DNA from: a candidate division FCPU426 bacterium
GTDB lineage: Bacteria > Oederibacteriota > Muellerivitia > Muellerivitales > Muellerivitaceae
Length of the DNA stretch: 64,000 bases
Assembly (NCBI GenBank): GCA_963796105.1
Contig: CAWCKJ010000006.1
Location: 1-64,000 of the forward strand
Direction of reading: 5' to 3'
Both the position numbers and the translations under genes were made by a program. This document shows, piece by piece, positions 519 through 57,251 of the stretch. Numbering within the stretch: the stretch's first letter is position 1; each line of letters starts with the position of its first letter. A model generated the notes under the pieces. That model was not told the origin of the DNA. It worked only from the letters and a program-made list of their open reading frames with translations, and did not search any database.

Positions 519-3500
519 GTCTTGGGCATCACGAACAAGGGTTTCGGCCCCCCGCCGGATTCCAACGGTTTTTATTATGACTGGGACGCCACGGTAACCA
601 TGATTGGGTCCAAGGGTTTTCCCGGGGCTTCATATAACGGTACCGGATGGGTGCCTTATTGTTGGTCGGCGACTATCGTCGGGGACGACAACACGAACAA
701 CGCCGTTTATGACTGCCTGTCCCGGACAAACTCCTTCTCTATGGTCAACCCGGCAGTCACGTCCAATTCCATCACCTATGTCATGAATTGCCCCACCAAT
801 ACCTTTACCCCGACTTGGACCTATACTTTCACCTACACTCCTACCGGATCTACTCCTACGCCTACTCACACCTATACTTCCACTTATACCTATACCCCCA
901 CCCCTACGAGAACCCCCACTCCAACCAATACCCCAACCAGGACCCCGACACCCACGCCTACCAACACGCCTACAATTACACCTACCCCCACGCCGACCCC
1001 GACGAGGACGCCTACACCGACGCCAACGATTACTCCCACACCCACCCCAACGAGGACGCCAACTCCGACGCCAACGGTAACTCCAACCCCGACCCCGACA
1101 AGTACACCCACGAGGACCCCCACCCCGACTCCTTCACCCACCCCCACGAACACGCCCACTCCCACGCCGACCATAACTCCCACACCTACGCCGACGAGGA
1201 CGCCAACTCCCACCCCTACGCCTACCCCCTCGCCCACACCCACGACCACGCCCACGAGAACGCCTACCCCCACGCCTTCACCGACCCCCACGAATACCCC
1301 CACCCCGACCCCCACAACTTCGCCTACCCCGACTCCGACCAGGACTCCCACGCCAACCCCCACGAATACCCCGACTCCAACCCCCACGACCACTCCCACC
1401 CCAACTCCAACGAATACGCCCACTCGGACGCCCACTCCGACTCCTTCACCCACCCCGACGACCACGCCTACCCCGACTCCAACCCGGACTCCAACGCCCA
1501 CGCCGACAAATACCCCGACTCCAACCCCCACGACTACTCCCACCCCAACTCCAACGAATACACCTACCAATACGCCGACTAGGACTCCTACTCCCACGCC
1601 GACGACCACGCCTACCCCGACCCCGACGAATACTCCCACCTCGACTCCAACCCGTACGCCCACACCTACGCCTACAACAACCCCGACCCCGACTCCGACG
1701 AACACACCCACGAGAACCCCCACGCCGACCCCGACACCTACGCCTACAACTACCCCTACACCCACCCCGACTAATACGCCAACTGTGACTCCCACTCCGA
1801 CGAATTCGCCGACCGGAACCCAGTCGCCGACTAACACACCGACTAAGACGCTTACCCCCACGCTTACTCCCACGCCAACACCCACACCGACCATCACGCC
1901 AACACCCACGCCGACGAATACCCCGACGAGGACTCCAACACCCACACCGACTCCTACCCCGACCACCACGCCGACCCCGACTCCTACGAATACCCCGACG
2001 AGGACGCCGACTCTGACGCCGACTTCGACCCCCACGACAACGCCCACTTCCACTCCAACGAACACATCCACCTTGACTCCCACGAATACGCCGACCCCGA
2101 CGCCTACCACGACGCCTTCCCCAACCCGGACGAACACACCCACGCAAACCCCGACGCCGACGCTAACGTCGACAGGAACGACCTCACCCAGTCCCACCCC
2201 GACAAACACGCCGACTTCCACGGCGTCTCCCACGCCGACCGCCACACCCACCGTGACGCCTTCGCCCACGCCCACTTCCACCCCTACCCTGACTCCGACG
2301 CCCACTCCGACTTCGACCCCGACGACGACGGCCAGTCCGACGCCGACCAATAGCCCCACCAACACCCCTACCTCGACAGATACACCGACCCCGACAGAAA
2401 CGCCTCAATTTACCTACACGCCCACGGATACTTCGACCCAAACCCCGACGCCGACTGTGACCAACACCCCGACGGATACCTTCACGCCGACACCCACATC
2501 TACGCCAACGAACACTTACACGGCCACGAACACGCCGACAGAGACCCCAACACCCACCATGACGAACACCCCGACGGACACTTTCTCGCCGACGCCCACG
2601 AATACGCCGACGAACACTTACACGGCCACGGACACGCCGACCGAAACCCCGACGCCGACAGTGACCAACACTCCGACCCCCACCAGCACTCCGACGGACA
2701 CGTTTACGGCCACAAACACGCCGACGGAGACCCCAACGCCCACCATGACGAACACTCCAACGGATACATTTTCTCCGACACCTACCAACACTTCGACGAA
2801 CACATCTACGGTCACCAACACGAAAACACCCACCAATACACCCACGCTCACGAACACGCCGACTTCTACATTTACCCCGACGCCGACAGCTACGGCGACC
2901 AACACGCCCACAGCCACGCCGACGCTTACGCCCACTCCCGCGGCGGTATTGGCCTTGCAGAAGCAGGAATCGGAGTCAACGGGTTCCGCCGGGGATCAGG
3001 TGACCTACACCTTGACGCTGAACGTGGCCAACGGCATGGCGGCCGGAATGGCGGTTCAGGATCAACTTCCTCCCAACTGCACTTTCTCGGCGTTTGGGTA
3101 TCTCCCCGTCCGGCACGTCGGCGGTGACGAGCGTAACAGGGGGGGTGACGATGATGAACTGGACTCTGCCAGCGTTGAATCCTGGGAGCTACCAACTGAC
3201 ATACATGGTTTCCATCAACAACTTCACGCAGGCGGGACCGATCGTGAACTGCGCGGTGTTGAGTTATCCAGGAAGCTCGTCTTTAAGTTCCTGCGCGACC
3301 TTGATGGTGACGGGAAGCTACACGGTGAAGATCGGGGTGTATAACGAGGCTGGGGAACTGGTGAAGACGATCCTGGTGACGCAATATTCCCAGCCCTTGG
3401 TGAACCTGCAGCTGCAGAACGGGAACCTGGTCAACGGGTTGAACGATCCGATCCTGATCTACGACTTGAACCATGAAATCGGGGCCTGGGACGGGACGGA

Positions 3501-4203
3501 CCAGAACGGGAACCCGGTGCCCAACGGGGATTACTACATCAAGGTGGACAATATCGATTCCTTCGGGGCGGACAAGAGCGTGGTATTGAACGTGGTGGTG
3601 AGCAGGTCGCTGGAGAAGGTGACGATCGACATCTACAACGAGGCGGGGGAGATCGTGGATACGCTGTACAGCCTGGTGGAGGACCCGCAGGGGACTGCCA
3701 TCACGGGGGTGAAGCTGTCGGGGACGGTCTTGGAGCCCGGGTCACCTACGGACGGGAACTTGGTCATCACGACGAACAACGGGGTAACGGCCACCTGGAC
3801 GGGATATTCATCAAGTGGGGCGGTGGTCCCGAATGGGAAATACTTCATCGAGGTGCACTCAACCGACGGAAAAGGCGGGGAGACGGTGATCGTGACATCG
3901 GTGATGGTGCTGAATAACACGAAACAAGCGGTTCCAAAAGTGTGGGCGTATCCGAACCCCTTAACTGGGGGATTCAGTCAAGTGGAGTTCCAGGCTTCGA
4001 ATCCGGGCATCAACCTAACGGTGAGGATTTATGACTTGGCGGGTGAACTGGTGACGGAACTGAAAGGGGCAGGGGGGACGAGCCGGGTGACTTGGAACGC
4101 CTCTGGTATCTCCAGCGGGCTTTACATCGCCAAGGCCGAGCAGAAGGATCTCACGGGCAAAATCATCGCCAAACAGACAATCAAACTATTGGTGGAAAGA
4201 TAA
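519..4203 (+). pseudogene. Giant Thr/Pro-stalk secreted protein 1, 5'-truncated by IS21, with a +1 frameshift at 3099
   Basis: The frame begins right after the IS end, with no RBS or signal peptide. ORFs 522-3344 and 3094-4203 join if the extra T at 3099 is removed (TTTGGGTATCTCC here, TTTGGGATCTCC in the paralog at ~8151). The tail has a DUF11-like domain and three FlgD-Ig-like units. Confidence 0.85.
993..4197 (+). repeat. 3.2 kb near-identical direct repeat, copy 1 (stalk plus tail of giant gene 1)
   Basis: Matches 6051-9254 at offset 5058 (5057 after the indel). By eye there are about 15-20 substitutions and one indel. Identity stops one codon before the stop codon. Confidence 0.95.
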
Positions 4204-4319: not shown

Positions 4320-7300
4320 ATGAAAGAAAACAAAACGAAATACACTCAAAGAATATTAAATATTTTTACCGTTATTTTTGTGGCCGCTTCCCTGGTTCCG
4401 ACCTTGAACGCCGCTATGGTTACCAAGATTGCGGACAATACTTCTTACTTACCCTGCGCTCCCATCACCTACACCCTTGTGGTGCAACCAGGCGACACAG
4501 CCTCGGACCTAGTCGATTCCTATGCTTTAACCAGCGGATCTGTCCCAACGGGCTGGACCAACGCAGGGACAGCCAGCAGTGGAGCGACCTATGGTTGGAC
4601 CGGAGCTTCCTGGGGAATCCGGGCTGAAACCGGGGGATGCACGGGTCTTAATTACGGGCCATACAACTCAGCGGCGGTAAGCCAATACCCCCAAATCATA
4701 TCCAACGTGTCAGTTGGGCCGAATGTTGAATTTACCTACGAGTCTTGCCTTCCCGATTCAGCTCTCTCCGGTGACGACGACGTCGTTTTTATCCCGCGCT
4801 ACGCCAGCTGTCAGCAGTATTTCATGCTCCGGGCCGACCAATGGCAGTTGAGCGACACCTGCAATGGAACCAGCCGGCTTTTTTACGACACGGTTCAAGG
4901 CAGTTCCTGCACCAACACCTCTTTTACAGACGGGAACAACACCACCACCACCCAGGCGACAGTCCCTTGCATTTCCCGCAACACCTGGTTTTCCTATCGG
5001 GTTCGCATTTGCGGCAACCAGCTTTTGGCGAAAATATGGCAATCGGGCACGGCAGAGCCTGGCTGGCAGTTGACTGTCACGGACGCAAATTTGAATACCT
5101 ATTCTACGGGTGATTTCGGCTTTCAGGCGAACCAGGGTGATATTACTTTTCGGAACCTGAATGTTTACAACATCGCGGCGGAAACCGGCGTAACAGTCAC
5201 GGACCCGCTTCCGAGTTGTTTCACCTACACGAGCGCCACGGCGGGGCAGGGAACCGCGACTTACTCGGGTGGGACTCTCACTTGGAGCGTGGGCAGCCTG
5301 ACCGCCTGCCAGACTCCCGTGACCTTAAAAGTGGTGGAACAGGTTGGGTCCGCTTGCACCGGCAACTATCCTAACACGGCGTCGGTCACTAGTAGTGCCG
5401 GAACTGGGGTGGCAGGCGCGGTGACGGTCGGCGTGGATCCATTCACCATCACGAAATCTATCAACACCATTCCCGCCAGCATCGTGGGAGGGACCGCCGT
5501 AACCGCTGACATCGCGATCTGCAATTCCGGCACGGTTACGCAGCAGTCTGTGACAGTGACCGACGTCGTCACGAATTATCCCCGGTTTGTGGGTTTTAGC
5601 GGGGAAGTCAATGGCGGCAATATGAACGACGCTTCCACTCATACCACAGCAGCGGGAATATCCTATTACGCCCCCTCCGCCAACAATTCTCCCTCAACCA
5701 TCATTTACCTGGGAGTCCCTCCGGGGAAATGCGTAACCTTTGAGACCCGTTACCAGTGGGACAATCCTCCCGCGGCATGTTCAGTGTATACCGATTACGG
5801 GGAATTGGTGTCTGGTTGTCCTTTGACCACCAAAACCTTCGCTATCACCCAGCAATGCATCACCCCAACCTTTACCAATACTTATACCAATACCTACACC
5901 TTTACCCCGACACCCACTCGAACGTCCACCCCTACTCCCACTCTTTCGCCAACACCTACCCGGAGTCCAACCCCCTCGCCCACACCCACGACCACGCCCA
6001 CGAGAACGCCTACCCCCACGCCTTCACCGACTCCGACGAACACCCCCACACCGACCCCGACGAGGACGCCTACACCGACGCCAACGATTACTCCCACACC
6101 CACCCCAACGAGGACGCCAACTCCGACGCCAACGGTAACTCCAACCCCGACCCCGACAAGTACACCCACGAGGACCCCCACCCCGACTCCTTCACCCACC
6201 CCCACGAACACGCCCACTCCCACGCCGACCATAACTCCCACACCTACGCCGACGAGGACGCCAACTCCCACCCCTACGCCTACCCCCTCGCCCACACCCA
6301 CGACCACGCCCACGAGAACGCCTACCCCCACGCCTTCACCGACCCCCACGAATACCCCCACCCCGACCCCCACAACTTCGCCTACCCCGACTCCGACCAG
6401 GACTCCCACGCCAACCCCCACGAATACCCCGACTCCAACCCCCACGACCACTCCCACCCCAACTCCAACGAATACGCCCACTCGGACGCCCACTCCGACT
6501 CCTTCACCCACCCCGACGACCACGCCTACCCCGACTCCGACCCGGACTCCAACGCCCACGCCGACAAATACCCCGACTCCAACCCCCACGACTACTCCCA
6601 CCCCAACTCCAACGAATACACCTACCAATACGCCGACTAGGACTCCTACTCCCACGCCGACGACCACGCCTACCCCGACCCCGACGAATACTCCCACCTC
6701 GACTCCAACCCGTACGCCCACACCTACGCCTACAACAACCCCGACCCCAACACCGACGAACACACCTACGAGAACCCCCACGCCGACCCCGACACCTACG
6801 CCTACAACTACCCCTACACCCACCCCGACTAATACGCCAACTGTGACTCCCACTCCGACGAATTCGCCGACCGGAACCCAGTCGCCGACTAACACACCGA
6901 CTAAGACGCTTACCCCCACGCTTACTCCCACGCCAACACCCACACCGACCATCACGCCAACACCCACGCCGACGAATACCCCGACGAGGACTCCAACACC
7001 CACGCCGACTCCTACCCCGACCACCACGCCGACCCCGACTCCTACGAATACCCCGACGAGGACGCCGACTCTGACGCCGACTTCGACCCCCACGACAACG
7101 CCCACTTCCACTCCAACGAACACATCCACCTTGACTCCCACGAATACGCCGACCCCGACGCCTACCACGACGCCTTCCCCAACCCGGACGAACACACCCA
7201 CGCAAACCCCGACGCCGACACCCACGCCGACAGGAACGACCTCACCCAGTCCCACCCCGACAAACACGCCGACTTCCACGGCGTCTCCCACGCCGACCGC

Positions 7301-9260
7301 CACACCCACCGTGACGCCTTCGCCCACGCCCACTTCCACCCCTACCCTGACTCCGACGCCCACTCCGACTTCGACCCCGACGACGACGGCCAGTCCGACG
7401 CCGACCAATAGCCCCACCAACACCCCTACCTCGACAGATACACCGACCCCGACAGAAACGCCTCAATTTACCTACACGCCCACGGATACTTCGACCCAAA
7501 CCCCGACGCCGACTGTGACCAACACCCCGACGGATACCTTCACGCCGACACCCACATCTACGCCAACGAACACTTACACGGCCACGAACACGCCGACAGA
7601 GACCCCAACACCCACCATGACGAACACCCCGACGGACACTTTCTCGCCGACGCCCACGAATACGCCGACGAACACTTACACGGCCACGGACACGCCGACC
7701 GAAACCCCGACGCCGACAGTGACCAACACTCCGACCCCCACCAGCACTCCGACGGACACGTTTACGGCCACAAACACGCCGACGGAGACCCCAACGCCCA
7801 CCATGACGAACACTCCAACGGATACATTTTCTCCGACACCTACCAACACTTCGACGAACACATCTACGGTCACCAACACGAAAACACCCACCAATACACC
7901 CACGCTCACGAACACGCCGACTTCTACATTTACCCCGACGCCGACAGCTACGGCGACCAACACGCCCACAGCCACGCCGACGCTTACGCCCACTCCCGCG
8001 GCGGTATTGGCCTTGCAGAAGCAGGAATCGGAGTCAACGGGTTCCGCCGGGGATCAGGTGACCTACACCTTGACGCTGAACGTGGCCAACGGCATGGCGG
8101 CCGGAATGGCGGTTCAGGATCAACTTCCTCCCAACTGCACTTTCTCGGCGTTTGGGATCTCCCCGTCCGGCACGTCGGCGGTGACGAGCGTAACAGGGGG
8201 GGTGACGATGATGAACTGGACTCTGCCAGCGTTAAACCCCGGGAGCTACCAACTGACATACATGGTCTCCATCAACAACTTCACGCAGGCGGGACCGATC
8301 GTGAACTGCGCGGTGTTGAGTTATCCAGGAAGCTCGTCTTTAAGTTCCTGCGCGACCTTGATGGTGACGGGAAGCTACACGGTGAAGATCGGGGTGTATA
8401 ACGAGGCTGGGGAACTGGTGAAGACGATCCTGGTGACGCAATATTCCCAGCCCTTGGTGAACCTGCAGCTGCAGAACGGGAACCTGGTCAACGGGTTGAA
8501 CGATCCGATCCTGATCTACGACTTGAACCATGAAATCGGGGCCTGGGACGGGACGGACCAGAACGGGAACCCGGTGCCCAACGGGGATTACTACATCAAG
8601 GTGGACAATATCGATTCCTTCGGGGCGGACAAGAGCGTGGTATTGAACGTGGTGGTGAGCAGGTCGCTGGAGAAGGTGACGATCGACATCTACAACGAGG
8701 CGGGGGAGATCGTGGATACGCTGTACAGCCTGGTGGAGGACCCGCAGGGGACTGCCATCACGGGGGTGAAGCTGTCGGGGACGGTCTTGGAGCCCGGGTC
8801 ACCTACGGACGGGAACTTGGTCATCACGACGAACAACGGGGTAACGGCCACCTGGACGGGATATTCATCAAGTGGGGCGGTGGTCCCGAATGGGAAATAC
8901 TTCATCGAGGTGCACTCAACCGACGGAAAAGGCGGGGAGACGGTGATCGTGACATCGGTGATGGTGCTGAATAATACGAAACAAGCGGTTCCAAAAGTGT
9001 GGGCGTATCCGAACCCCTTAACTGGGGGATTCAGTCAAGTGGAGTTCCAGGCTTCGAATCCGGGCATCAACCTAACGGTGAGGATTTATGACCTGGCGGG
9101 TGAACTGGTGACGGAACTGAAGGGGGCAGGGGGGACGAGCCGGGTGACTTGGAACGCCTCTGGTATCTCCAGCGGGCTTTACATCGCCAAGGCCGAGCAG
9201 AAGGATCTCACGGGAAAAATCATCGCCAAACAGACAATCAAACTATTGGTGGAACATTAA
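4320..9260 (+). CDS. Giant Thr/Pro-stalk secreted protein 2 (1646 aa): signal peptide, DUF11-like domain with inserted lectin-like domain, Cys neck, stalk, DUF11 plus 3x FlgD-Ig/T9SS-CTD-like tail
   Basis: Signal peptide ends ...VPTLNA. DUF11 motifs are ITYTLVV and VTVTDPLP. The stalk spans ~5860-7997. Tail motifs are [11 protein letters not shown]...WDGTDQNG...NGDYYIKV and AYPNP...IYDLAGELV...SGLYI. Confidence 0.9.
6051..9254 (+). repeat. 3.2 kb near-identical direct repeat, copy 2 (stalk plus tail of giant gene 2)
   Basis: See 993-4197. Confidence 0.95.
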
Positions 9261-16487: not shown

Positions 16488-19400
16488 ATGAGAATAATGG
16501 CTGATAAAAAACATAAACTTATTATTGCTGTTATCGCCATTGCCGTTAGTAGCATTGGAATCTTCATCCCCTATCGGGGTTATGCCCAATGTACTCCTTC
16601 CTCCGCGAGAATCTGTGTGGCTAGTGATGACTGGTCCCAGGTCTATGTTGGTGGTGTTTATTTGGGTCAAATCAATTATTGCAACTGGGACGGCACAGGA
16701 TCATGTCCCCCGGGTTGCATTACTGTTCCCACTTCTCTTTTAACCGGAAGTCAAGTTTATGTCAGCATGTACACCCAAAATACCGCTTGCAATAATGTTT
16801 ACGCATCCTGGGACCTGGACATCACTTGTTCCAACGGGCAGCATTCCGAAATCACCAGTTCCGGCGGTGGAGTTAAGCTGGACTATATTAGTTCTGGGAA
16901 TCCGACCACTCCCCCCGCCACCAACTGGTATGCGACCAATTACAGCACAAGCGGCTGGGCTAATCCGGCGCAGGTCAGCACCACTTCGGGTTATTGCTGT
17001 TGGGGCCAAAACATATATAACCCCATAACGGGCCAGACAATACCATTCATGTCGTCAGACAGCACGGGAGCCTATAGCACCAGCAATTGCAACGGCGCTC
17101 TTTTCTTCTCCCAGGCCACCACTATCCCGCCTCCCTCCCCGACCATGGGACCCGCGACCATAACAGTCACGAAATCCCTTGTGGCGGGACAGCCAGTCAC
17201 TAATACCGGCAATGACATGTTCGTGACATTCCAGGTAGTTGTTTGCGACACTGGGGGGCCTGTGACAAGCGGAGGGGTGACTCTCACGGACACACAAGCC
17301 GGAGGTACTGCTTTCGCTTTTATCGGCTGGCTTGTCGACGGCTCCGTATCCATCGATTACCAGCCCCAAGCCAGCTGGCCGATTCCCGCGGCCAATGGCG
17401 GAAGTCCGGCGACTTGGGGAAATTTTCCTGGTAATTCCTGTGTGACTCTTCTTGCTAGTATGGAAGATTATTACTGGGAGGGGAACGCCTGCCAAACAAT
17501 TACCAATACCGCCAGCGTGGCCTATTCAGGAGGGACTAAAAATTCCGGCATAGTGACAGTGGGCCGTCCTTGCACACAATCCACCCCTACATTCACTAAT
17601 ACTTATACCAACACATTTACTTATACATACACTTTCACTCCCACCCGAACCCCCACAAATACCCCCACTCGAACCCCGACCCCAACTCCCACCAATACTC
17701 CCACAAACACGCTTACCCCTACTCATACTCCTACCCCAACGAATACTCCTACTCCTACACCGACTCCATCACCCACACCTACCCCCACAAGAACTCCGAC
17801 ACCCACCCCGACGATCACGCCAACCCCAACCCCGACGCCCACGCCTTCCCCGACTCCTACCCGGACCCCAACCCCCACTCCCACCATCACCCCGACGCCC
17901 ACTCCGACCAATACCCCTACCCCCACCCCGACCCGAACTCCCACGCCCACCCCGACTTTGACCCCAACTCCTACACCTTCTCCCACGCCCACAAGGACCC
18001 CGACGAACACGCTCACTCCGACACCAACAACATCGCCCACTCCCACGCCCACAAGGACTCCGACGCCTACCCCTACTAACACACCCACCCCGACACCAAC
18101 GACGTCGCCTACCCCTACACCTACCAGGACCCCGACGCCAACTCCTACGAACACGCCCACTCCGACCCCGACTCTTACTCCCACTCCTACACCAACCCAC
18201 ACTCCTACACCTACTCCGACCAATACTCCAACGCCAACTCCGACAAGAACCCCCACACCCACTCCGACAAACACACCAACCATTACTCCCACTCCGACGA
18301 ATACCCCTACAGGGACCACGTCACCCACGAACACGCCGACCGTTACTCCTACCCGGACTCCGACTCCCACGCCCACGAATACACCCACCGTGACACCCAC
18401 TCCGACCCCAACCAACACTCCAACTAGGACACCTACCCCGACTCCGACCCCGACGCCAACTACCACTCCTACACCGACCCCCACGAATACACCGACACAA
18501 ACTCCTACCCACACTCCAAGCCCAACCGGGACCACATCTTTCACCAATACACCCACGAACACGCCCACCAAGACTCCGACTCCCACGCCCACGAATACAC
18601 CCACCGTGACACCCACTCCGACCCCAACCAACACTCCAACGCATACGCCAACACCCACTCCAAGTCCGACCGGGACCACCTCACCCACTAATACACCCAC
18701 GAACACGCCTACGCGCACGCCCACGCCAACATCAACCCCTACTCCAACCGTAACTACAACCCCTACTCCGACGAACACCCCGACATTGACCCCCACACCA
18801 ACTCCCAGTCCGACTGGGACCACGTCGGCTACTAATACACCCACGAACACCCCTACGCGCACGCCCACGCCAACATCAACTCCTACCCCAACCGTGACAA
18901 CAACCTCCACCCCGACTAACACCCCAACACTGACCCCCACGTTGACGCCGACGACAACCCCGACCACAACGACAACCGCGACCCTGAGCAATACGCCAAC
19001 GCGTACCCCCACTTCCACGTTTACATCCACACCCACCGTAACAGTTACTTCTACACCGACAAATTCCCCAACCCTGACGCCCACGTTGACGCCGCCGACA
19101 ACTCCGACCACCACCGTCACGGCCACACCAACGAATACCAACACGCTCACGCCGACCTTAACCCCGACTCCGACCCCAACCATTACCGTCACGGCTACAC
19201 CCACGAATACGACTACGCTGACGCCGACCTTGACGCCGACGACAACCCCGACCACTACCGTCACGGCCACACCAACGAATACCAACACGCTCACGCCGAC
19301 CTTAACCCCGACGCCTACACCGACGATTACAGTTACGGCCACGCCTACGAATTCCGCCACGCTAACACCGACTTTGACCTCGACGCCTACCCCAACAATC

Positions 19401-45614: not shown

Positions 45615-48600
45615 ATGGAACTTTTTTACAATCGAAATTTAAAATCCCTTAGATTATCAAAACTCTTAGCAGGGTTTTTGGGACTATTGCTTTTTTCATT
45701 CATTTCTCCTTCACACTCTTTAGCGCAATGCACGCCCTCTTCCGCCCAAATATGTGTGGCTAGTGATGACTGGTCCCAGGTATATGTCGGGGGCGTTTAT
45801 CTTGGTCAAGTCGCTTACTGCAATTGGGATGGCACGGGAACTTGTCCTCCAGGATGTATAACCGTTCCCACGTCGCTTTTAACCGGTAGCCAAGTTTTTG
45901 TTTCCGTTTATACACAAAACACCGCTTGCAACAATATGTATTCATCCTGGGACTTGGATATCACATGTTCCAACGGACAACATTCCGAAATAACTAGCGG
46001 TACTAGCGGAGTCAAATTGGATTATGTGAGCGCCGGAAATCCGGCGACACCTCCTGCCACCAACTGGTACGCCACTAACTTCAGCACCAGCGGCTGGGGA
46101 AGTCCGGTGAATGTCAGTACCGCTTCCGGAGCTTGCTGCTGGGGGCAAGAAATTTTTAATCCTGTAACAGGCCAGCAAGTTCCGTTTACGGCTTCCACCA
46201 CTGATGGGGATTACAGCACCAGCAATTGCGGAGGCGCCCTTTTTGAAACTGTCGCCACAACGATCCCGCCTCCTTCCCCGACCGTGGGGCCAGCGACGTT
46301 GACGATTACTAAAAGCCTTGTGGCTGGGTCTGAAGTTGAAAGTGGCGGAGACATGTTCGTGACCTTCCAGGTTGTGGTTTGCAATACCGGGGGTCCCGTG
46401 ACGAGCGGTGGAGTAACACTAACCGACAACCAAGCCGGAACTGGAACGGCTTTCAGCATGATAGGCTGGATAGTGCCGGCGGTTTCCCCGGTTTCTATTG
46501 ATTACAACTCAAATGCAAGTTGGCCTGAACCCGCTTCCAGTGGGGGTAATGTTGCAAGATGGGGAGATTTCCCCGGGAACACTTGCGTGACCCTTTTGGC
46601 CAGCATGGTAGATTATTACTGGGCGGGAAACCAATGCCAAACTATCACCAATACTGCCAACATAGGTGATTCAGAACAATCAGTAACTTCAAATCCCCCT
46701 GTGACAGTGAATCGTCCTTGCTTCACGAATACACCAACCTATACATTTACGGCAACCTATACCCCGACTCCTACGTATACCCGAACATTTACCTATACGC
46801 CGACTTGGACCTACACTTCCACTCCGGCTGTTACAAACACCCCCACCCATACAAACACTTATACATATACTTACACTAATACTTATACCTATACCAATTC
46901 TCCCACACCCACATCTACTCCTACGAAAACCCCTACCCCTACCCCCACCCCTACGCCTACCAACACTCCGACCCCAACGCCAACACCCACGAGGACTCTT
47001 ACTCCTACCCCCACTAATACCCCAACGCCCAGCCCCACCCCGACACCCACGCCATCACCAACTCCAACCAGGACTCCGACCCCTACTCCAACGAATACCC
47101 CAACTCCCACGCCAACTGTTTCCCCTACTCCTACTCCAACTCGTACCAATACGCCTACGAATACACCCACTCCAACCCCGACGAACACCCCTACACCAAC
47201 CCCGACACCATCGCCAACACCGACTCCTACACGTACCCCGACCCCAACACCCACAACAACCCCTACGCCGACTCCCACTAACACACCTACTCCGACGCCA
47301 ACCGTAACCCCTACTCCCACACCAACTAGAACCCCTACACCCACCCCTACGCCTACCCCTAGCCCGACACCAACCAATACGCCTACACCCACACCCACCA
47401 CGACCCCAACACCGACCCCCACCAGGACCCCGACACCCACGCCCACCAACACTCCTACCCCAACCCCGACCACAACCCCAACTCCAACCCCTACCAATAC
47501 TCCCACTCCCACCCCGACTAGGACTCCGACACCCACACCCACAACCACTCCTACACCGACTCCCACTAACACTCCTACTCCCACCCCGACCGTAACCCCG
47601 ACACCCACGCCAACCAGGACACCCACTCCAACACCAACTAATACCCCAACTCCTACTCCCACGAACACTCCGACTCCTACCCCTACAACAACGCCAACAC
47701 CAACCCCTACCAGGACGCCGACTCCTACACCCACCAACACGCCTACTCCTACCCCGACCACAACCCCTACCCCAACCCCCACTAATACTCCCACACCGAC
47801 CCCCACAAGGACGCCGACTCCCACGCCGACCACCACTCCCACACCCACTCCGACCAATACCCCAACTCCGACACCCACTAACACGCCGACACCTACCCCG
47901 ACTAGAACCCCGACGAACACTCCTACTCCGACTCCCACCAATACACCCACGAATACGCCCACGCCCACACCCACAACCACCCCAACACCCACGCCCACGA
48001 GGACTCCAACCCCGACCCCTACCAATACCCCGACCCCCACCCCAACAACAACTCCTACTCCAACACCAACCAATACACCAACCCCAACTCCCACACGCAC
48101 TCCTACTCCAACACCGACAACCACACCTACCCCGACGCCCACTCCAACACCCACTATTACCCCAACGCCAACCAATACCCCAACTGGGACCCAGTCGCCC
48201 ACGAATACTCCTACCATCACCCCGACCAAAACCCCGACCCCGACTCCCACCAACACGCCGACGATTACGCCCACACCAACGCCTACCAATACCCCCACAA
48301 GGACGCCAACCCCTACCCCGACTCCAACCCCAACGACAACTCCCACGCCAACACCCACGAATACCCCGACGCCCACACCCACTAATACGCCCACGCCAAC
48401 TCCAACTACTACGCCAACTCCAACGCCGACCAATACCCCCACAAGGACGCCGACCCATACGCCAACCCCTACACCGACCCTGACACCTTCTCCGACACCC
48501 ACGAATACCCCAACCCCCACACCCACCAATACTCCAACGCCTACTCCAACCACCACCCCGACACCTACCCCCACAAGGACGCCGACTCCCACGCCCACGA

Positions 48601-51593
48601 ACACCCCGACTCCAACACCCACAACCACCCCTACCCCCACACCCACGAACACTCCCACTCCCACACCTACGAATACCCCGACACCCACTCCCACAACTAC
48701 CCCAACCCCTACACCAACTAGGACTCCAACTCCTACCCCGACCAATACGCCAACTCCCACCCCGACGATCACTCCGACCCCCACCAATACTCCAACACCT
48801 ACCATCACGCCCACGCCGACAAACACCCCTACAGGAACTCAGCCGCCCACGAATACGCCCACCATCACTCCGACCAAGACTCCGACACCTACTCCCACAC
48901 CCACCCCGACTGTGACTCCTACTCCCACCCCAACCAATACTCCGACTTCTACGCCTACCAACACCCCAACCCCCACACCTACGACGACTCCCACGCCGAC
49001 ACCCACCAATACCCCGACTAGGACCCCGACTCCCACACCAACTCCTACTCCCACGACCACTTCCACCCCCACACCGACTAATACGCCTACATCTACTCCT
49101 ACCAACACCCCGACTCCCACTCCGACACTGACGCCCTCGCCGACGCCTACCAATACACCCACGAATACTCCGACTTCCACGCCAACACCCACCCCAACAG
49201 TCACCCCAACCCCGACGAATACCTCAACCGGGACGACATCCCCCACGAACACCTTTACTGTTACTCCGACACTGACTCCTTCACCCACTCCTACCAATAC
49301 TCCTACGAATACGCCGACACCCACCCCAACCCCCACTCCAACCTCAACACCCTCCAATACCCCGACTTCTACACCTACAAACACCTCGACACCCACACCC
49401 ACCCATACCCCTACAACTACTCCCACCCCCACTTACACGCCTACTCCCACCCAGACTCCAACTCCCACATCAACCGACACTCCGACCGACACGCCTCCTT
49501 TCACCTATACAAACACCAATACCCCAACAAACACATCCTCCCCGACGGATACCTATACATCCACTCCCACTCCGACTAACACCCCTACCCCGACTCCAAC
49601 TAACACTTCCACAAACACCAACACTCCGACCGACACACCAACCAATACCCCGACCCCCACACCCACAAACACTCCCACCAATACCAATACCCCGACACCG
49701 ACTTTCACGGACACACCAACATCCACGCCAACGCCTACTCCTACCGCCACCCCGACTGATACACCTCCATTCACCTATACAAACACCAATACCCCTACCG
49801 ACACTTCCACGCCGACCAGTACCTACACACCCACGAACACACCAACCAATACCCCAACCCCGACATCAACCAATACACCCACCAATACGAATACACCGAC
49901 AGACACTTCCACGCCGACTAGTACCAATACACCCACGAATACGCCGACTAATACCCCCACTCCAACACCCACTAACACTCCCACCAACACCAATACCCCG
50001 ACAGATACCGCCACACCGACCAATACCAATACCGCTACCAATACCTATACAGCGACCAACACTCCGACCAACACCAATACGCCCACTAATACCCCCACCG
50101 CTACCAACACCTCTACTCCTACCAACACCTATACGGCCACCAATACCCCCACCAATACCAACACCCCGACTAACACCAATACTCCTACCAATACGCCTAC
50201 TCCTACTCCCACCAGGACGCCTACTAACACTTCCACTCCCACGAATACGCTTACAGCCACGAATACACCCACTAATACCAATACCCTGACACCTACCCCC
50301 ACGGCGACCTTCACTCCCACCCCCACGCCTGCCGCGGTATTGGCCTTGCAAAAACAGGAGTCAGAATCAACAGGTTCCTCGGGGGATATGGTGACCTATA
50401 CCTTGAATGTGAATGTCTCCAACGCCAACGCTCCCGGGGTAGTGGTGCAGGACCAACTGCCTCCCAACTGCACTTTCACGGCCTTCGGGGTCTCACCAGC
50501 AGGAACATCGGCCGTAACCACCGTTTCAGGCGGGGTGACCATGATGAACTGGACATTGCCCACCCTTATCCCTGGAAGCTACCAATTGACTTATACAGTC
50601 TCGATTAACAGCTTCACGCCCGCGGGACCCATTGTGAACTGCGCGGTCTTAAACTATCCGGGAATCTCACCATTGAGTTCCTGTGCCACATTAATGGTGA
50701 CAGGGAGCTACACGGTGAAGATCGGGGTATATAACGAGGCAGGGGAACTGGTAAAGACACTGTTGGTAACCCAATATTCCCAGCCCTTGGTGGACCTGCA
50801 GTTGAAGAACGGGGATCTGATTAATGGGCTGAATGATCCCATCCTGATATATGACCAGAATACCCAGATCACGGTGTGGAACGGGACAGACCAGAACGGG
50901 AACCCGGTGCCGAATGGTGATTATTACGTGAAAGTGGACAATGTCGATTCCTTCGGGGTGGATAAGAGCGTGGTATTGAACGTGGTGGTGAGCAGGTCGT
51001 TGGAGAAGGTGACGATCGACATCTACAACGAGGCTGGAGAGATCGTGGACACGCTCTACAGCGTGGTGGAGGACCCACAAGGGACGGTGATCACAGGGGT
51101 GAAGCTGTCAGGGACGGTTTTGGAGCCGGGATCACCGACGGATGGGAACCTGATCATTACGACCAATAACGGGGTGACGGCCACTTGGACGGGATATTCC
51201 TCAAGCGGGGCGGTGGTGCCGAACGGGAAATACTTCATCGAGGTGCACTCCACCGACGGAAAAGGCGGGGAGACGGTGATCGTGACATCGGTGATGGTGT
51301 TGAACAATCCGAAACAGACGGTACCGAAAGTCTGGGCCTATCCGAACCCCTTAACTTCCGGATTCAGCCAAGTGGAGTTCCAGGCCTCAAATCTTGGGAT
51401 CAACCTGACGGTGAGGATCTATGACCTGGCGGGCGAGCTGGTGACGGAGCTGAAAGGCGCGGGAGGAACGAGCCGGGTGACTTGGAATGCCGCGGGAATC
51501 TCAAGCGGGCTCTATATCGCCAAGGTGGAACAGAAGGATCTCACGGGAAAAATCATCGCCAAGCAGACACTAAAGATCCTGGCAGAACATTGA
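45615..51593 (+). CDS. Giant Thr/Pro-stalk secreted protein 4 (1992 aa): head paralogous to gene 3, tail paralogous to genes 1 and 2
   Basis: The head [24 protein letters not shown]... matches the 16488 ORF. The tail [16 protein letters not shown]...[11 protein letters not shown] matches the 4320 ORF. The stalk spans ~46720-50330. Confidence 0.92.
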
Positions 51594-51653: not shown

Positions 51654-54600
51654 TTGAATTGGAATGATAAAAAAACGTTATTAGTAAAAGATATTCCAAG
51701 CCTACTAAAAGATGACTTGTTTTATAACCCCGTGAATTACTGGAAAAGCGCTTTATTTACTTTCAATAAATTTCTACAAAAAATCCTTTTATATCTTCAT
51801 TACTTAGTAAAAACATTCTTTTTTTTAAATCTCCAAATAAAATCGTTTTTTGATATCCGCCAGGCTCATTCAGTATTCGTTGTTATGGCTTGGGCGGCTT
51901 TTTTATTAATTTTTTCAACTACTTCCATACAAGCAACCCCTTCTTCCCTTACTGTAGTAGGCAATAACGTTGAGGCGACCGGAGGTTGTGTCGTTCACTT
52001 AAAAGGTGTTGATGTGGATGGCCTTGAATTTTCCCCTACTGGTTACGGCCCCATTAGTGGTGGCGGGTTTGGCAACGGGGGAGATACCCTGCAATTGGCC
52101 CAAGAGGCTGTGACAGCCTGGAAAAGTACCATTATCCGCCTTCCTCTCGACCAGGATTTTTGGTTTGGCTGCTCCAACGGAAACGGGTCTCCCACGGCTT
52201 CGGCATACCAGGGGATCGTATCCTCCATCGTCAATTATTGTTCAGGCCAAAACGTATACGTGATTTTAGACCTGCACTGGTCGGGGACTTCCTCCACGGC
52301 CTCAGCTCCCTGCGGCAGCGGGTGGGGTGGAGCCACGGCCCAGCATCAAATGGCGGACCAAAACGCAGTCACTTTTTGGAGCTCAGTCGCGGCGGCTTAT
52401 GCGAATAATCCCGCTGTCCTTTTCGACCTTTACAATGAACCTTACGATTCCGGCAATGACAATCCGCCGCCTATCGTAGATACGACCGGTTATAACACAT
52501 GGCTCAGTGGCGGCACACTCAGCGGAGCATCCTTTTCTACGCCCGGAATGCAAAAGTTGTTAAATGCTGTGCGCTCAGCAGGCGCCAATAATGTTTGCTT
52601 ATTGGGGGGATTATATTGGTGTGCTAACTTAAACGGACTTCCAGCCGCCTCAGTGACTAATAGAGGTAATGGAATAATATTTTCTGCGCATTTTTACTCA
52701 AATAATGACGGCAACTCCCCGGTCAGCTGGAATGCGGAAATACCTAGCTCGCTTTTGGCGAGTTACCCTGTATTCGTCGGGGAATTTGGGCCTTCCAATA
52801 ACACTTGCAACTCTAATGATAGTACTTTTGATACCAATGCAGTCTCCTGGATAAACAATACCAGTGGAATTGTTGGCGCAACGGCTTGGTCTTTTTCCAC
52901 GCAATCCTGCCCCAACCTACTGACCGGTTGGGTCACCAGCAGTACATGGGGATCTGCGGTATCCACCTGGCTGGCCACCCCTTATGCCGCGTGCAGTTCG
53001 CCTGTCCCGACCCCGACGATTACCGCCACGCCTAAACCTCCCAGCATCACTTTCACCAAGACCACCGGCGGGCCGACCTCGGGTTACAGTACCGGCGGCC
53101 CCATCACGTTGAATTTTACTTTATGCAACGCTGCTGGTTCATCCGCTCCTGCACCAGCGACAGTGACCGACGTGACAACGAACTATGGTTGGATGAGTTT
53201 CGATGGTCCCAATTACAGTTCCTGGACAGTGACAGTGGGCGGAAATCCTATCACCATTAATCCGTTGAACCAAGGTTTTCCAACAACCTGGACGGTCAGC
53301 TCAATTCCCGGAGGGGCCTGTGTAACCATTCCCTTATACGTACAAAACAATGGTTTCGCTGCCAGCCAATCCTGCCAAGTCATGACTGATTATGGTTCGC
53401 TTTCATGGCAGGGTGGTGGGCCTGTCACAAGTAACACCATTTCGACGACCATGGTATGCCTGACAGCAACACCCACATACACTTTCAGCTATACCCCAAC
53501 CCACACCTTTACTTATACCCCCACTTTTACATATACAGCTCTAGTGAACACATCGACTTTTACAAGAACGGCTACTCCGACCGCCACTAATACCTTAACG
53601 AATACCCGGACGAATACTCCTACCGCTACAACTACCTTTACTTCAACCCCGACTAATTCTCCCACCCGTACATGGACACTGACATCGACTCCCACTCCCA
53701 CGGTTTCACAAACTCCCACTCCGACCCGTTCACCAACTCCTACGATAACAAATTCATTTACACCGACAACTACACCCACAAACACATTGACCTTGACTCC
53801 GACAAGGACATCAACATCCACAAATACCATTACTTCTACATCGACACCCACGAACACTTCAACTCGAACACCGACACCCTCAGCCACGCCGACCCTCACC
53901 AGGACTCTAACTCCTACACCCACCACTACCCTTACGTCCACTCTGACAGTAACCCCTACACCTACTCCAACTAGGACTCCGACTCCCACACCCACCAACA
54001 CTCCCACCCCGACGTCCACGAATACGCCCACTCCCACACCCACAACAACCCCAACCTCGACTCCTACCAGGACTCCGACCCCCACGACCACTAACACCCC
54101 AACTCCAACCACAACATCTACCCCTTCACCCACTAATACCCCCACCCCCACCCCGACTAGGACCCCAACCCCGACTCCAACAACCACTCCTACCCCGACA
54201 CCCACTAACACACCTACCCCCACCCCGACCGTGACACCTACTCCCACACCAACCAGAACCCCGACTCCAACACCAACCAATACCCCAACTCCCACCCCCA
54301 CGAACACCCCGACAACGACGCCAACATCGACCCCAACCAGGACTCCTACTCCCACGCCTACCAACACCCCGACTCCTACCTCGACGACAACTCCTACTCC
54401 AACCCCCACCAATACCCCCACACCAACCTCAACCAGAACGCCTACTCCCACGCCTACGAATACTCCGACATCTACACCCACAACTACCCCAACACCCACT
54501 CCGACTAATACCCCTACCAGAACACCAACTCCCACCCCGACCCCCACGCCCACTACGACTCCCACCCCCACTCCAACCATTACCCCAACACCCACGAATT

Positions 54601-57251
54601 CTCCAACCGGGACTCAATCGCCCACGAACACCCCGACTCCTACCCCCACAACGACGCCAACACCGACCCTAACCAGGACGCCGACACCTACTCCTACTCC
54701 AACCCCCACCAATACCCCAACCCTCACGCCGACGAACACACCGACTCCCACACCCACATCAACTCCAACGCCTACCCCAACCAGGACGCCTACTCCCACG
54801 CCTACGAATACTCCGACATCTACACCCACAACTACCCCAACACCCACTCCGACTAATACCCCTACCAGAACACCAACTCCCACCCCGACCCCCACGCCCA
54901 CTACGACTCCCACCCCCACTCCAACCATTACCCCAACACCCACGAATTCTCCAACCGGGACTCAATCGCCCACGAACACTCCAACCATAACTCCGACTCG
55001 GACCCCGACCCCTACTCCAACTCCTACACCTACCATTACCCTCACACCAACGCCTACCAATACCCCCACAAGAACGCCAACCCCTACCCCCACGAATACG
55101 CCCACATCCACTCCTACTACCACCCCGTCACCTACTCCGACTAATACACCCACCCCAACCCCGACACCCACCAATACTCCAACTCCTACCCCTACGAATA
55201 CTCCTACACCCACTCTCACCACTACCCCGACCCCTACTCCAACAAGAACCCATACGCCAACACCTACCAATACGCCTACTCCAACACCCACCACCACTCC
55301 GACTCCGACCCCCACCAACACGCCAACCATCACCCCGACTCCAACCAATACGCCCACAGGAACCCAGTCTCCAACGAATACTCCTACCATCACGTCGACT
55401 AAGACCCCGACTCCTACTCCTACCCCCACACCGACGGTGACGCCTACTCCCACTCCTACTAATACCCCGACTTCTACACCCACCAATACGCCGACGCCAA
55501 CGAATACACCTACAAGGACGCCGACGAATACCCCGACCCCTACGCCTACCTCCACGCCAACTAATATCCCGACACTAACGATGACTCCGACTCCTACCAT
55601 CACTCCCACACCTACTAATACTCCTACAGGAACTCAATCACCCACAAACACGCCAACTATCACCCCGACCAAGACCCCAACCCCCACACCCACTTCCACG
55701 CTTACACCCACGACTACCCCGACCCCTACACCCACTCCGACGCCAACTCCGACTCCTACTCCCACCCTCACACCTACGCCGACCCCGACACCCACACTGA
55801 CGCCAACCCCAACACCCACTAAAACACCAACCCCGACACCAACTCCAACTCCTACCATCACCCCCACTCCCACGAACACACCGACTGGAACGCAGTCCCC
55901 CACAAGCACACCCACAATCACTCCGACTCCTACGCCAACACCCACTCCGACCCCAACGCCGACGATCACTCCCCCACCCACGCCCACCAATACCCCGACC
56001 AGAACACCGACTCCGACTCCCACACAGACTCTAACGCCTACACCTACCCCAACACCCACCCCCACGAATACCCCTACACCGACTCCGACTAGAACTCCGA
56101 CACCCACACTCACGCCTACTCCCACTCCCACACCGACCCCAACCAACTCCCCGACCACAACGCCTACTCCCACACTTACTCCCACGCCGACAATCACCCC
56201 CACTCCCACGAACACACCGACTGGGACTCAGCCGCCCACAAGCACACCCACGGTCACCCCTACCCCAACATCCACACCAACCCTGACCCTCACGTCAACG
56301 CTGACGAATACTCATACAGTCACACCGCCATACACTGCGACCCTGACTTTAACAAATACCTCCACAGTTACGAATACACCGACCTTTACCCAAACGAGTA
56401 CTTACACGAACACGAGGACGAATACTCCAACGATGACTTTCACACCCACCAACACATGGACATCAACGGCGACCTGGACGGTTACTTCGACGCCAACCAT
56501 TACACCCACAAGCACGAGTACAATGGTTACAGTCCAGGCTAATCAAGTTTCATCGTCTCCGACAACCCAGATACCCGGAGCGACAGGAGTGACGGTTCTC
56601 CAAGTCCAATTCACTAATCCAAGCTCCAGTACGGTTACACTGACCAGCCTAACGCTGACAGTTTCGGGCACCGGAAACCCCGTGGATATGGGACCCGTAA
56701 CACTGTTGGAAAACGGGGTGCCGATCGCCACGGGAATATTGGGTTCTGGAGCGGCCACCTTCACCATTAACAATACATTGGGATCGAATGGAAACACCTA
56801 CACGGTTGTAACCAGCTTTTCGACCTCGGCATCAGGAACTTACATCGTCAGCGCGGTGGGGGCTGCTGGAACCAACGGTCAGGCAGTAGTGGTGAACGGT
56901 TTACCGGTCACAGGCGCAGTCGTCGATGTGGCTACGCCGACAGCAACGTATACTTCTACGCTTGTTCCTAAACCCACTTGCGTAGGACCTTATCCAAACC
57001 CCGTGGAAAATGGTCCTGTTTCATTCCACCTATGGGTACCGGGAACGACTGTGGCGAAATGGTCCGTGTTTAGCTTATCCCTGAGAAAAATTGTAGGTGG
57101 GGAACTAACTATCTCGAATAACGGTGTAATTGCATGGGATTTAAAGGATCAATACGGAAAACAAGTGGCAAATGGCCTGTATTACGTGAGGGTTGAAATG
57201 CTTGGAACCCAAAACTTGAACAAGATATTTAAAGTCTTAATCGAGAAATAA
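51654..57251 (+). CDS. Giant Thr/Pro-stalk secreted protein 5: GH5 glycoside hydrolase head, Cys neck, stalk, Ig-like plus FlgD/T9SS-CTD-like tail (start uncertain, may be later)
   Basis: GH5 motifs IIRLPL, VILDLHW, FDLYNEP (acid/base Glu), SAHFY and VGEFG (nucleophile Glu). The tail reads PYPNP...[20 protein letters not shown]. Confidence 0.9.
54438..54979 (+). repeat. Apparently exact 194 bp direct repeat within the gene 5 stalk (54438-54631 and 54786-54979)
   Basis: The same sequence recurs at offset 348. It also shows as two identical antisense peptides in the ORF track. Confidence 0.88.

Follow-up and report, generated by a model that had tools for sequence, protein, structure and literature searches.

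The stalks and tails of the giant surface-protein genes in the window, by which we mean the whole 64,000-nucleotide stretch analysed, are patchworks made up of near-identical pieces of paralogs from the same genome, likely produced by ectopic recombination of the host's own (RecA-type) kind that starts in the Thr-repeat stalks. We give this reading a probability of roughly 75%. Stalk-centred recombination without a dedicated recombinase had been put forward in an earlier note on this DNA, and it is now backed by a census of common tracts, by tree tests and by an association with long stalks. The same note had described one shared architecture in five genes, and indeed all five consist of a head, a Thr-X stalk and a tail. 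They are members of a much larger family: the source genome (G000) carries 50 giant head/Thr-X-stalk/CTD-tail genes, amounting to ~5% of the genome, with Thr-X stalks of 700-1,700 aa. The genomes compared with it include G001, a congener of G000, and G002, which belongs to another genus.

Giant genes of the window

The five genes and the elements associated with genes 1 and 2 are as follows.

1..517, + strand: IS21-family element, 3' end (istB end and inverted repeat; NF038214 IstB match)
518..4203, + strand: gene 1, 3' part (end of B-family head to 824, stalk 825-2967, tail X 2968-4203)
984..4197, + strand: tract common to genes 1 and 2 (3,214 bp, 99.4%; partner about 6042-9254)
4320..9260, + strand: gene 2 (head A to 5834, stalk 5835-8021, tail X 8022-9260)
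16488..21650, + strand: gene 3 (head B to 17555, stalk 17556-21368, then tail Y)
45615..51593, + strand: gene 4 (head B' to 46697, stalk 46698-50354, tail X 50355-51593)
51654..57251, + strand: gene 5 (GH5 head and Ig-like domain to 53435, stalk 53436-56549, then tail Z)

Genes 1 and 2 stand in tandem, as do genes 4 and 5, and the N-termini are hydrophobic as judged by eye only. The IS21-family element, of which there are 12 more copies across G000, sits inside the head of gene 1 with a 5-bp target duplication on both sides, and contig C10 ends with the remaining part of the element and the 5' half of the gene. Gene 1 had been read as a 'neck remnant C' joined to tail X; the tail stands, but the supposed remnant is the 3' part of the split B-family head, whose 5' part lies on C10. 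One extra base near 3099 causes a frameshift in the tail. Gene 2 has a head A with a weak 3-keto-disaccharide-hydrolase/ConA-like hint plus DUF11, and its tail X contains DUF11-like plus FlgD-Ig/T9SS-A-type CTD domains. The tract common to genes 1 and 2 starts 160-208 bp into the stalk and reaches the last codon, and the heads are unrelated; it contains 17 substitutions and 1 indel, and 8/8 substitutions past the frameshift are silent. A similar pair in G001 (C37) is a candidate ortholog only, as the 6 kb directly upstream of the 5' half of gene 1 gave no more than short-repeat matches in G001.

The tail Y of gene 3 is a single ~90-aa CTD-like domain, while tail Z of gene 5 combines a ~150-aa domain lacking a Pfam match with a CTD-like domain. 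The GH5 head previously assigned to gene 5 is confirmed by PF00150 (E 2e-30). For head B' of gene 4, a lectin/CBM-like beta domain plus an Ig-like domain is predicted. Gene 4 had been described as a mosaic of a gene-3-like head and a gene-1/2-like tail, and the likeness itself is borne out: the heads of genes 3 and 4 are 74.0% identical (aa, 335 residues) and the tails of genes 2 and 4 are 88.3% identical (aa, 418 residues), while the tails of genes 3 and 4 can be aligned over 53 residues only (41.5%). A recent, direct gene-3/gene-2 hybrid was rejected, as four-fold-site differences of 0.60 and 0.40 make the likeness old. Judged from its sequence, gene 4 is a patchwork of putative donors on other contigs, through the following tracts.

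47043..49378, + strand: stalk-only tract, 99.9% over 2,336 bp to G000:C4_1016029
49387..49810, + strand: stalk-only tract, 99.5% over 424 bp to G000:C2_227519
49923..51568, + strand: distal stalk and tail X tracts, 98.5%, to G000:C2_227519 (1,433 bp) and G000:C4_631966/630440 (1,503 bp)

Tracts common to different genes

An ungapped census was used for tracts at least 300 bp long with an identity of 95% or higher, because gapped megablast alignments continued into diverged stalk and so missed head tracts. All but two of the 179 tracts (177/179) lay within one genome, and in stalks and tails none of this length and identity was common to G000 and G001. The 177 comprised 108 stalk-only tracts, 36 running from stalk into tail, 21 tail-only tracts, 3 starting in heads, and 9 flank duplicates or others. 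Since 21 tracts were confined to tails and 2 to heads, the stalk is not needed for every event. Stalk-only tracts join genes with unrelated heads and tails and connect different tail classes, for example with 99.4% identity over 1,022 bp and 97.3% over 1,009 bp. The gene G001:C50_98869 has a head 99.8% identical to that of a Y-tailed gene, a stalk 99.9% identical to that of the gene 4 counterpart, and a tail about 99% identical to that of a third gene; the two loci of this head exchange have a 547-bp head tract in common in G000 too.

The earlier note placed the junction in the proximal Pro-rich stalk and saw the 2-4 kb stalks as shared homology arms, and both ideas need correction. Junctions were found along entire stalks and not in the proximal part alone, with tract ends at depths of 46 bp to more than 4,000 bp and others in tails and heads; among 59 gapped tracts, 36 end no more than 40 bp from the stop codon, 20 inside stalks and 2 at a contig end, and 1 continues downstream. 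To find junctions in stalks is to some extent expected in any case, because the stalk separates head and tail and frequently makes up over half of a gene's length. The idea that any two stalks offer each other kilobase homology arms can be discarded, given that the longest exact match of unrelated stalks has a median of 21 bp and reaches 100 bp or more in only 5 of 150 sampled pairs. Stalks with redrawn codons share at most 28 bp and cross-species pairs at most 41 bp, compared with up to 923 bp within G000. An Asp-containing distal zone had been thought to travel with tail X. This is true of the five window genes, where genes 1, 2 and 4 carry 3.0-3.4 Asp per 100 aa in the distal quarter of the stalk and genes 3 and 5 none, but not of the genome as a whole: the zone occurs in 11/12 X genes and also in Y-tailed genes, such as five on C11 (3.3-4.4 per 100), which rules it out as an X-specific marker.

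A CTD 90% or more identical to that of another gene was present in 21/49 long-stalk and 2/66 short-stalk genes. The genes compared are not statistically independent, so that Fisher p values overstate the association, which may stem from subfamilies that expanded recently and not from the stalk as a cause. Some long-stalk genes carry no recent tail tract. In G002, 7/15 X-type tails have a partner within the genome that is at least 96.7% identical, and the first domains are unrelated in most of these cases, while recent tail tracts were found in 0/8 cases in G016 and 0/5 in G004.

Separate histories of heads and tails

Head and tail trees, the comparison suggested in the earlier note, are incongruent (AU p≤0.002). 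In the tail-X DNA tree, 11/12 G000 tails form one clade and 6/7 G001 tails another, both at 100/100. Constraints grouping counterpart tails were rejected (p-AU 1e-49, 3e-34, 0.0017), and so was one grouping X-tailed B heads (p-AU 0.00017). The tail alignment left out L004, L014 and L018. Mapped on the head tree, the tail label needs 5 changes, against a mean of 5.6 for shuffled labels.

We compared 20 pairs of giant-gene counterparts between G000 and G001. At four-fold sites, the same-genome paralog was closer than the G001 counterpart in 17/20 pairs for tails and in 3/20 pairs for heads, and thus heads are mostly fixed at their locus while stalks and tails are overwritten. This overwriting is concerted evolution: tails of within-genome paralogs are closer at silent sites than those of between-species counterparts (four-fold differences of 0.00-0.27 for most paralog tails, 0.31-0.62 for counterparts), and the tracts keep to homologous genic sequence, with no exchange of flanks. 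Gene flanks are mostly collinear between the two genomes. About 13/20 pairs, those of genes 4 and 5 among them, have kept both head type and tail class, with the tail sequence overwritten within its own class. New head-tail pairings are a minority, about 7/20, and the earlier idea that any head can be joined to any tail is overstated. At C4_970393, an X-versus-Y swap is supported by the head and upstream flank only; downstream synteny was looked for in G001 and not found.

How the patchworks may arise

Many in-register matches of ~20 bp between any two stalks would be the likely seeds of strand invasion. Copying would then stay within the stalk, or pass from the stalk through the homologous tail to the stop codon, and less often it would go back through a homologous head. 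Every event leaves kilobase-long identity behind, and therefore the next one would be favoured. The usual outcome would be concerted evolution, in which a head is kept at its locus while its stalk and tail are overwritten from the same tail class. Rarer outcomes would include a new pairing, when a head is copied to a gene whose tail belongs to a different class, the spread of an extra domain between stalk and CTD, and crossover between tandem genes. Dependence on RecA, as well as the direction and non-reciprocity of transfer, is what we infer for this process. G000 has recA, and it also has mutS1, so that exchange between diverged stalks is expected to be limited.

Unequal crossover between stalks could also duplicate and delete genes, in the manner of an accordion, and the mosaics would then be crossover products rather than conversion tracts. 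The tandem arrangement of genes 1-2 and 4-5 fits this, and tandem copy number differs between G000 and G001 (1 vs 3 at C4_607105; 2 vs 3-4 at C4_1428667); S. aureus sdrCDE grows and shrinks by crossover through its SD stalks. However, stalk-only tracts and multi-donor mosaics connect dispersed loci with G001-collinear flanks, which single crossovers would be expected to rearrange, and common tracts stop at the stop codon. Such crossover probably contributes in arrays and cannot account for the dispersed loci, and we regard it as an unlikely explanation of the whole. Import of mosaic genes by allelic exchange with other strains, that is, between cells and not between loci, would have a parallel in the T9SS cargo of P. 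gingivalis, diversified by allelic exchange, and some loci do adjoin variable, IS-rich DNA. Yet donor and recipient sequences co-occur at different loci of the same genome, and the census, at its length and identity thresholds, found no tract in common between G000 and G001 stalks or tails. We consider this origin very improbable; transfer could provide donors, with ectopic recombination still required.

An artefact of assembly or polishing, through wrong joins across stalks or a consensus that homogenised near-identical ones, has to be considered as well, given that the evidence consists of assemblies, not reads, that some tracts are 99.9-100% identical, that G001 contigs frequently terminate within stalks, and that three G000 heads continue into a tail which is nearly the same in all and for which just one 3' flank was assembled. 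Against it, 23 near-identical G000 tracts differ by 237 silent and 65 replacement changes, which does not resemble sequencing error and makes misassembly unlikely; two independent assemblies agree on head, tail class and flanks at most loci; and the pattern recurs in a 5-contig genome of another genus. Re-pairing would not rescue congruence either, for eight X tails are at least 95% alike and the closest G000 giant-gene heads about 90-92%. We thus hold an artefact to be highly unlikely. Still less can be said for a programmed system, whether site-specific recombinase or silent-cassette conversion. Head exchange between the same two loci in both species suggests preferred partners, but tract ends are scattered, with no fixed crossover sites of the shufflon or site-specific inversion type; partners are full-length genes at many loci, not the promoterless partial donors that feed one expression locus in vlsE- or MgPar-type silent cassettes; the recombinases in 18 neighbouring ORFs, a scanned subset of the window, were IS enzymes only; and four intergenic regions held no repeat family of note. 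Equally hard to credit is a history with no exchange, in which purifying selection on functionally constrained tails met convergent repeat slippage in low-complexity stalks: the homogenised silent sites and the long exact matches within G000, set against counterparts, codon-redrawn stalks and cross-species pairs as given above, largely refute it.

Known systems and implications

Among well-known surface proteins, FLO adhesins have GPI anchors and S. aureus Sdr proteins are sortase-anchored; recombination in sdrCDE was reportedly studied by Belikova et al. in 2020. Concerted evolution of bacterial multigene families is familiar from rrn operons and tufA/tufB, which, like the G000 genes, are homogenised at silent sites within a genome up to the edges of genic homology; in G000, unlike there, it acts module by module and heads stay divergent, hence the mosaics. 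No Pfam family of GPI or LPXTG anchors or of PA14 or MSCRAMM heads was found in the five window genes, whose tails are FlgD-Ig/CTD-like. S. cerevisiae FLO adhesins combine a lectin-like N-terminal head, a Ser/Thr-rich repeat stalk and a C-terminal anchor; their N- and C-terminal trees are incongruent, and chimaeras form via repeats and via microhomology inside the terminal domains (Christiaens et al., 2012, PMC3512402). They thus resemble the G000 genes in being head/low-complexity stalk/anchor paralogs with incongruent trees and junctions in repeats, but they are a handful of genes in a eukaryote, whereas the G000 family comprises about 50 genes at scattered loci, whose heads include many unrelated ones; chimaeras were also not generally enriched in repeat families (p 0.38, PMC3512402), while in G000 the association of recent exchange with long stalks is strong. 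In S. aureus, recombination between the stalk-coding regions of sdrCDE alters the genes by a RecA-type mechanism, and these too encode surface proteins of a bacterium in which the heads diverge and the dipeptide-repeat stalks are alike, although they are three tandem genes of a Gram-positive pathogen and the results are deletions and amplifications (PMC7360770). G000 differs in that the loci are dispersed, tracts can be stalk-only or have several donors, the stalks are of the Thr-X type and the tails are CTDs. The P. gingivalis genes RgpA, Kgp and HagA are CTD-bearing paralogs with near-identical modules via recombination, but they are few, their modules are globular adhesins, they lack a long stalk of low complexity, and their T9SS is the complete one of Bacteroidota (PMC5266723). 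The mechanism in G000 thus appears to resemble FLO and sdrCDE recombination, with a difference of genome-wide scale. The earlier note took the phenomenon to be undescribed. This holds for the family, on which no report of recombination was found in the open-access literature searched (supplements outside its scope), but not for the mechanism, known from FLO and sdrCDE.

By their sequences, the giant proteins are predicted to be exported via the CTD by a SprA/PorV-type system, with the stalk holding a glycan-binding or glycan-degrading head off the cell surface. As in T9SS type A cargo, tail X passes the sorting-domain cut-offs (TIGR04183, 36.2 bits vs 23; PF18962, 35.7-43.2 vs 27). Tails Y and Z gave only sub-threshold FlgD_ig, PorZ and PorU-tail matches. 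G000 has three PorV-like matches above cut-off and a 2,020-aa SprA-like ORF, whose best stretch (116.7 bits) falls below the family cut-off of 200. No PorU sortase (C25) match was obtained in G000, in a search whose control also matched nowhere.

An old idea holds that low-complexity linkers are to bacteria what introns are to exon shuffling; it was not found in the literature searched, and the accessible part of PMC7031533 makes no mention of linkers, threonine or FlgD. Quite speculatively, the Thr-X stalks might form an exchange network that keeps ~50 loci in ongoing, selected recombination, with tail class as an address that sorts proteins to different PorV-like shuttles. If so, a tail swap would re-route an enzyme or lectin head within a minimal T9SS outside the Bacteroidota, living populations would hold many head-stalk-tail combinations, and the family would be a natural test of the linker-as-intron idea. 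Repeat-stalk recombination has so far concerned few genes in yeasts and pathogens, and here it extends over about 50 genes spread through the genome of a bacterium not yet in culture. Its multi-donor tracts can be counted and the 66 short-stalk CTD genes, almost never affected, serve as internal control, so that linker-driven domain shuffling in bacteria becomes directly testable. In this family, tail or CTD trees are unfit for orthology calls, and short-read assemblies are expected to break or mis-join the stalk genes.

For head A, the ESM Atlas returned DUF11 and lectin-like leads only, under 0.9, and a sequence search against the PDB no match below E 0.87. Head B had no usable ESM Atlas match, and neither head B nor tail X had a close match in Foldseek (TM at most 0.29). 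The only likeness to SdrD among the five window genes was an Ig-like one at the level of fold (Z 9.5, rmsd 3.2, 128 aligned).

Giant stalk genes in the window and in the source genome

The five giant genes of the window have the layout described in the earlier note, namely a head, a Thr-X stalk and a tail:

518-4203, gene 1 (3' part), end of a B-family head, tail X
4320-9260, gene 2, head A, tail X
16488-21650, gene 3, head B, tail Y
45615-51593, gene 4, head B', tail X
51654-57251, gene 5, GH5 head, tail Z

The heads of genes 3 and 4 are 74.0% identical and the tails of genes 2 and 4 88.3%, while genes 1 and 2 have a tract of 3,214 bp in common (99.4%) that begins 160-208 bp inside the stalk and stops at the last codon. 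Gene 1, previously thought to retain a neck remnant, instead has an ordinary B-family head: its 5' half lies at the end of contig C10 before the same IS21 copy, which divides the gene and is flanked by a 5-bp target duplication. A single-base frameshift also interrupts gene 1 near 3099. The order of contigs C10 and C6 follows from this IS21 copy, which terminates both (window 1-522; C10 end, L092); the source genome (G000) has 12 more near-identical copies of the element.

G000 comprises 4.98 Mb in 16 contigs and is 96.8% complete, the window being the first 64 kb of C6. The window encodes lpxB, and the organism is therefore likely to be diderm. In a six-frame scan of G000, 164 ORFs had Thr-X stalks, and in 50 the stalk measured at least 400 aa; these 50 sum to ~90,000 codons, or about 5% of G000. 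Tail X is carried by 12 genes with at least five unrelated head types, and most pairs of its copies are 87-100% identical (one copy ~70%). For comparison we used a congener, G001, with flank DNA ~79% identical to that of G000, and four genomes from other genera of the same family (G002, G004, G016, G018). The G001 sample covers part of that genome, 46 stretches picked by tail and head matches, of which the first 40 supplied the 38 giant genes analysed.

Overwritten tails and re-paired heads

This family evolves in concert, module by module, within a genome, with occasional true re-pairing of heads and tails, and this process is centred on the long stalks. We compared 20 G000-G001 counterpart pairs, matched through syntenic flanks, the best head hit or both; for gene 2 and C3_779609 the head was the sole guide. 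At four-fold sites the tail was nearer to a G000 paralog than to the G001 counterpart in 17 pairs, and the head in 3; since the likeness of the tails extends to silent sites, selection alone is excluded.

Genes 4 and 5 have collinear G001 counterparts with head type and tail class unchanged, so the B-plus-X pairing of gene 4 predates the species split. Its tail is nevertheless 99.8% identical to that of a paralog vs 77.5% to that of its own counterpart. Stretches of its stalk match C4_1016029 (2,336 bp at 99.9%) and C2_227519 (424 bp at 99.5%), and the distal stalk plus tail is 98.5% identical to C2_227519 and C4_631966. Gene 4 is thus a patchwork of several donors. The earlier suggestion that it is a mosaic of its window neighbours holds as regards the patchwork and the likeness to genes 3 and 2, but those ties are old (four-fold difference 0.60 and 0.40) and the close matches lie elsewhere.

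Head-tail pairing differs in ~7 of the 20 pairs, through the tail in four and the head in three. C4_970393 has tail X where its counterpart has tail Y, with heads 80% identical and a common upstream flank; in three G001 genes a gene-5-like domain precedes the C-terminal sorting domain (CTD) and is missing from the G000 counterparts (heads 83-93%). The clearest head change is C8_25076, collinear on both sides, with a head 63% identical to its counterpart vs 87% to a gene elsewhere; the remaining two are less certain. One Y-tailed and one X-tailed gene of G001 have the head plus the first 314 bp of stalk in common (99.8% over 1,283 bp), and the same two loci in G000 share a 547-bp head tract. 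The gene-5-like domain, which spans ~150 aa between stalk and CTD and matches no Pfam family (window 56550-57000; L046, L047, L058), occurs in four G001 genes, and all three with a G000 counterpart have one that lacks it. The domain seems to move between genes, or to drop out of them, as one module.

In the tail-X DNA tree one clade holds 11 of 12 G000 copies and another 6 of 7 G001 copies, and a cross-species pair is kept at one locus only. Forcing counterpart tails together was rejected for gene 4 (p-AU 1e-49), C4_1144941 (3e-34) and gene 2 (0.0017). On the B-head tree (17 rows) tail X requires 5 changes vs a shuffled mean of 5.6, and a single X clade was rejected (p-AU 0.00017); a protein tree (23 rows), which carries a long-branch warning, gave 7 vs 7.1. 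By the tail-X tree, the AU rejections and these label counts, head and tail trees are incongruent, as the earlier note expected of shuffled modules.

We also weighed whether the mosaics might be assembly artefacts. G001 contigs frequently terminate inside stalks, and in G000 three different heads lead into one near-identical ~500-aa tail for which a single 3' flank was assembled (C12:250175, C13 end and C11 start), a site that may be a collapsed repeat or reflect alternative pairings in the population. Against this, 23 tracts hold 237 silent vs 65 replacement differences, all 8 substitutions after the frameshift in the gene 1/2 tract are silent, the two assemblies are concordant at most loci, and eight tails are at least 95% alike vs heads at best ~90-92%, which no re-pairing reconciles. 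Judged from the assembled sequence, misassembly is thus very improbable as the source of the mosaics, and we regard the exchange as a real feature.

Role of the stalk

An ungapped census (at least 300 bp, at least 95% identity) gave 179 tracts from pairs that are not independent, 177 of them within one genome and 108 entirely in stalks; the two between genomes both begin in heads. Tracts involve 27 of 50 genes in G000 and 24 of 38 in G001, a few counted via a neighbour's flank. Because stalk-only tracts connect genes whose heads are unrelated and whose tails differ, stalk homology alone suffices for exchange. Among 115 CTD-ended G000 ORFs, tracts were found in 24/47 with long vs 4/68 with short stalks, and two of those four are halves of long-stalk genes broken by a frameshift; short-stalk ORFs of at least 900 aa had tracts in 2/30. 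Likewise, a CTD at least 90% identical to that of another gene was present in 21/49 long-stalk vs 2/66 short-stalk genes.

The notion of kilobase homology arms does not fit the stalks: the longest exact match between them had a median of 21 bp and reached at least 100 bp in 5 of 150 sampled G000 pairs (the median was 11 bp for heads and 20 bp for both cross-species and codon-redrawn stalks). Stalks probably act as fields of short seeds, close to the minimal RecA pairing length of ~25 bp, and long arms between them would be the outcome of earlier exchange. Tract ends are dispersed, G000 has recA and mutS1, and no linked recombinase was found among 18 neighbouring window ORFs scanned.

Genome-wide, in G000 and G001 alike and across several tail classes, stalk composition changes along the length: the part near the head is rich in Pro and free of Asp, whereas the part near the tail is poor in Pro and often contains Asp. 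This suggests selection on stalk physics despite continual exchange.

Range and related systems

Of 15 X-type tails in G002, 7 match another tail of that genome at 96.7% or more, and the tracts concerned extend from the stalk to the stop over 1.4-2.3 kb (98-100%); the corresponding counts, from part of each genome's genes, are 2/9 in G018, 0/8 in G016 and 0/5 in G004. In L023/L025 and L024/L026, tail copies likewise pair according to record. Across the family the process is widespread yet uneven, and strongest with the longest stalks.

Chimaera formation in yeast FLO genes (PMC3512402) and recombination between the SD stalks of S. aureus sdrCDE (PMC7360770) work like the exchange seen here, and modules are reported to be exchanged among T9SS cargo of P. 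gingivalis (PMC5266723). The G000 genes belong to none of these protein families. The literature search listings contained no report of recombination in this stalk-gene family. The exchange stands out for its scale and for the internal control that the short-stalk CTD genes supply. In F. johnsoniae, CTD-specific shuttles have been shown to determine the destination of type B CTD cargo (PMC12618676), and by analogy tail class could serve as a sorting address.

Predicted protein parts

Tail X is predicted to be a chain of all-beta domains (pLDDT 82.5), with profile matches to DUF11-like, FlgD_ig and T9SS type A CTD. Head B is predicted to form two beta domains (pLDDT 75.2), for which the resemblances are fold-level leads only: domain 1 to a lectin of Pleurotus (Z 9.8, rmsd 2.9 over 123 aligned residues) and to an accessory domain of a rhamnosidase (Z 9.3, rmsd 3.3 over 129), domain 2 to Ig folds of the pilin/MSCRAMM kind (Z 9.9, rmsd 3.1 over 121). 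The gene 5 head matches GH5 and has the NEP and GEFG glutamate motifs. G000 encodes a SprA-like ORF of 2,020 aa (C3:~213200-219000), scoring under the cut-off of its family, as well as three PorV-like genes (C3:697179, C3:401657, C4:571768), which together resemble a pared-down T9SS in an unusual setting; a PorU search of G000 gave no match, nor did its control. We infer export via a SprA/PorV-type route.

Additional observations

Five tandem giant genes at G000:C11:5386-35240 have tails 97-100% identical and heads only ~29-37% alike; a G001 array contains head orthologs of three of them, and its tails too resemble one another within that genome. Frameshifted members (G000:C4:630440-635949 and C8:~25076; G001 C41:761-8624 and C50:134842-141811) may be pseudogenes, phase variants or sequencing errors. 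At and around G000:C6:271270-276246, B-type head domains are internal repeats of a multi-domain short-stalk protein (P0001); head domains are therefore reused beyond the giant-stalk layout.

The G001 counterpart of gene 3 is flanked by an aldo-keto reductase gene on one side and a rhodanese gene on the other, both of which precede gene 3 in the window (13872-21650 vs L036), and the downstream flanks also differ. At 9619-11590 and 12288-13262, two divergently oriented IS1595-family transposases are followed by a gene partly matching phosphorothioated-DNA-binding restriction endonucleases (51.6 bits vs a cut-off of 180); a comparable gene pair lies upstream of another B-head gene in G001. Directly upstream of lpxB lies a 419-aa ORF (26051-27310) that contains a short Thr-X run and matches no NCBIfam model.
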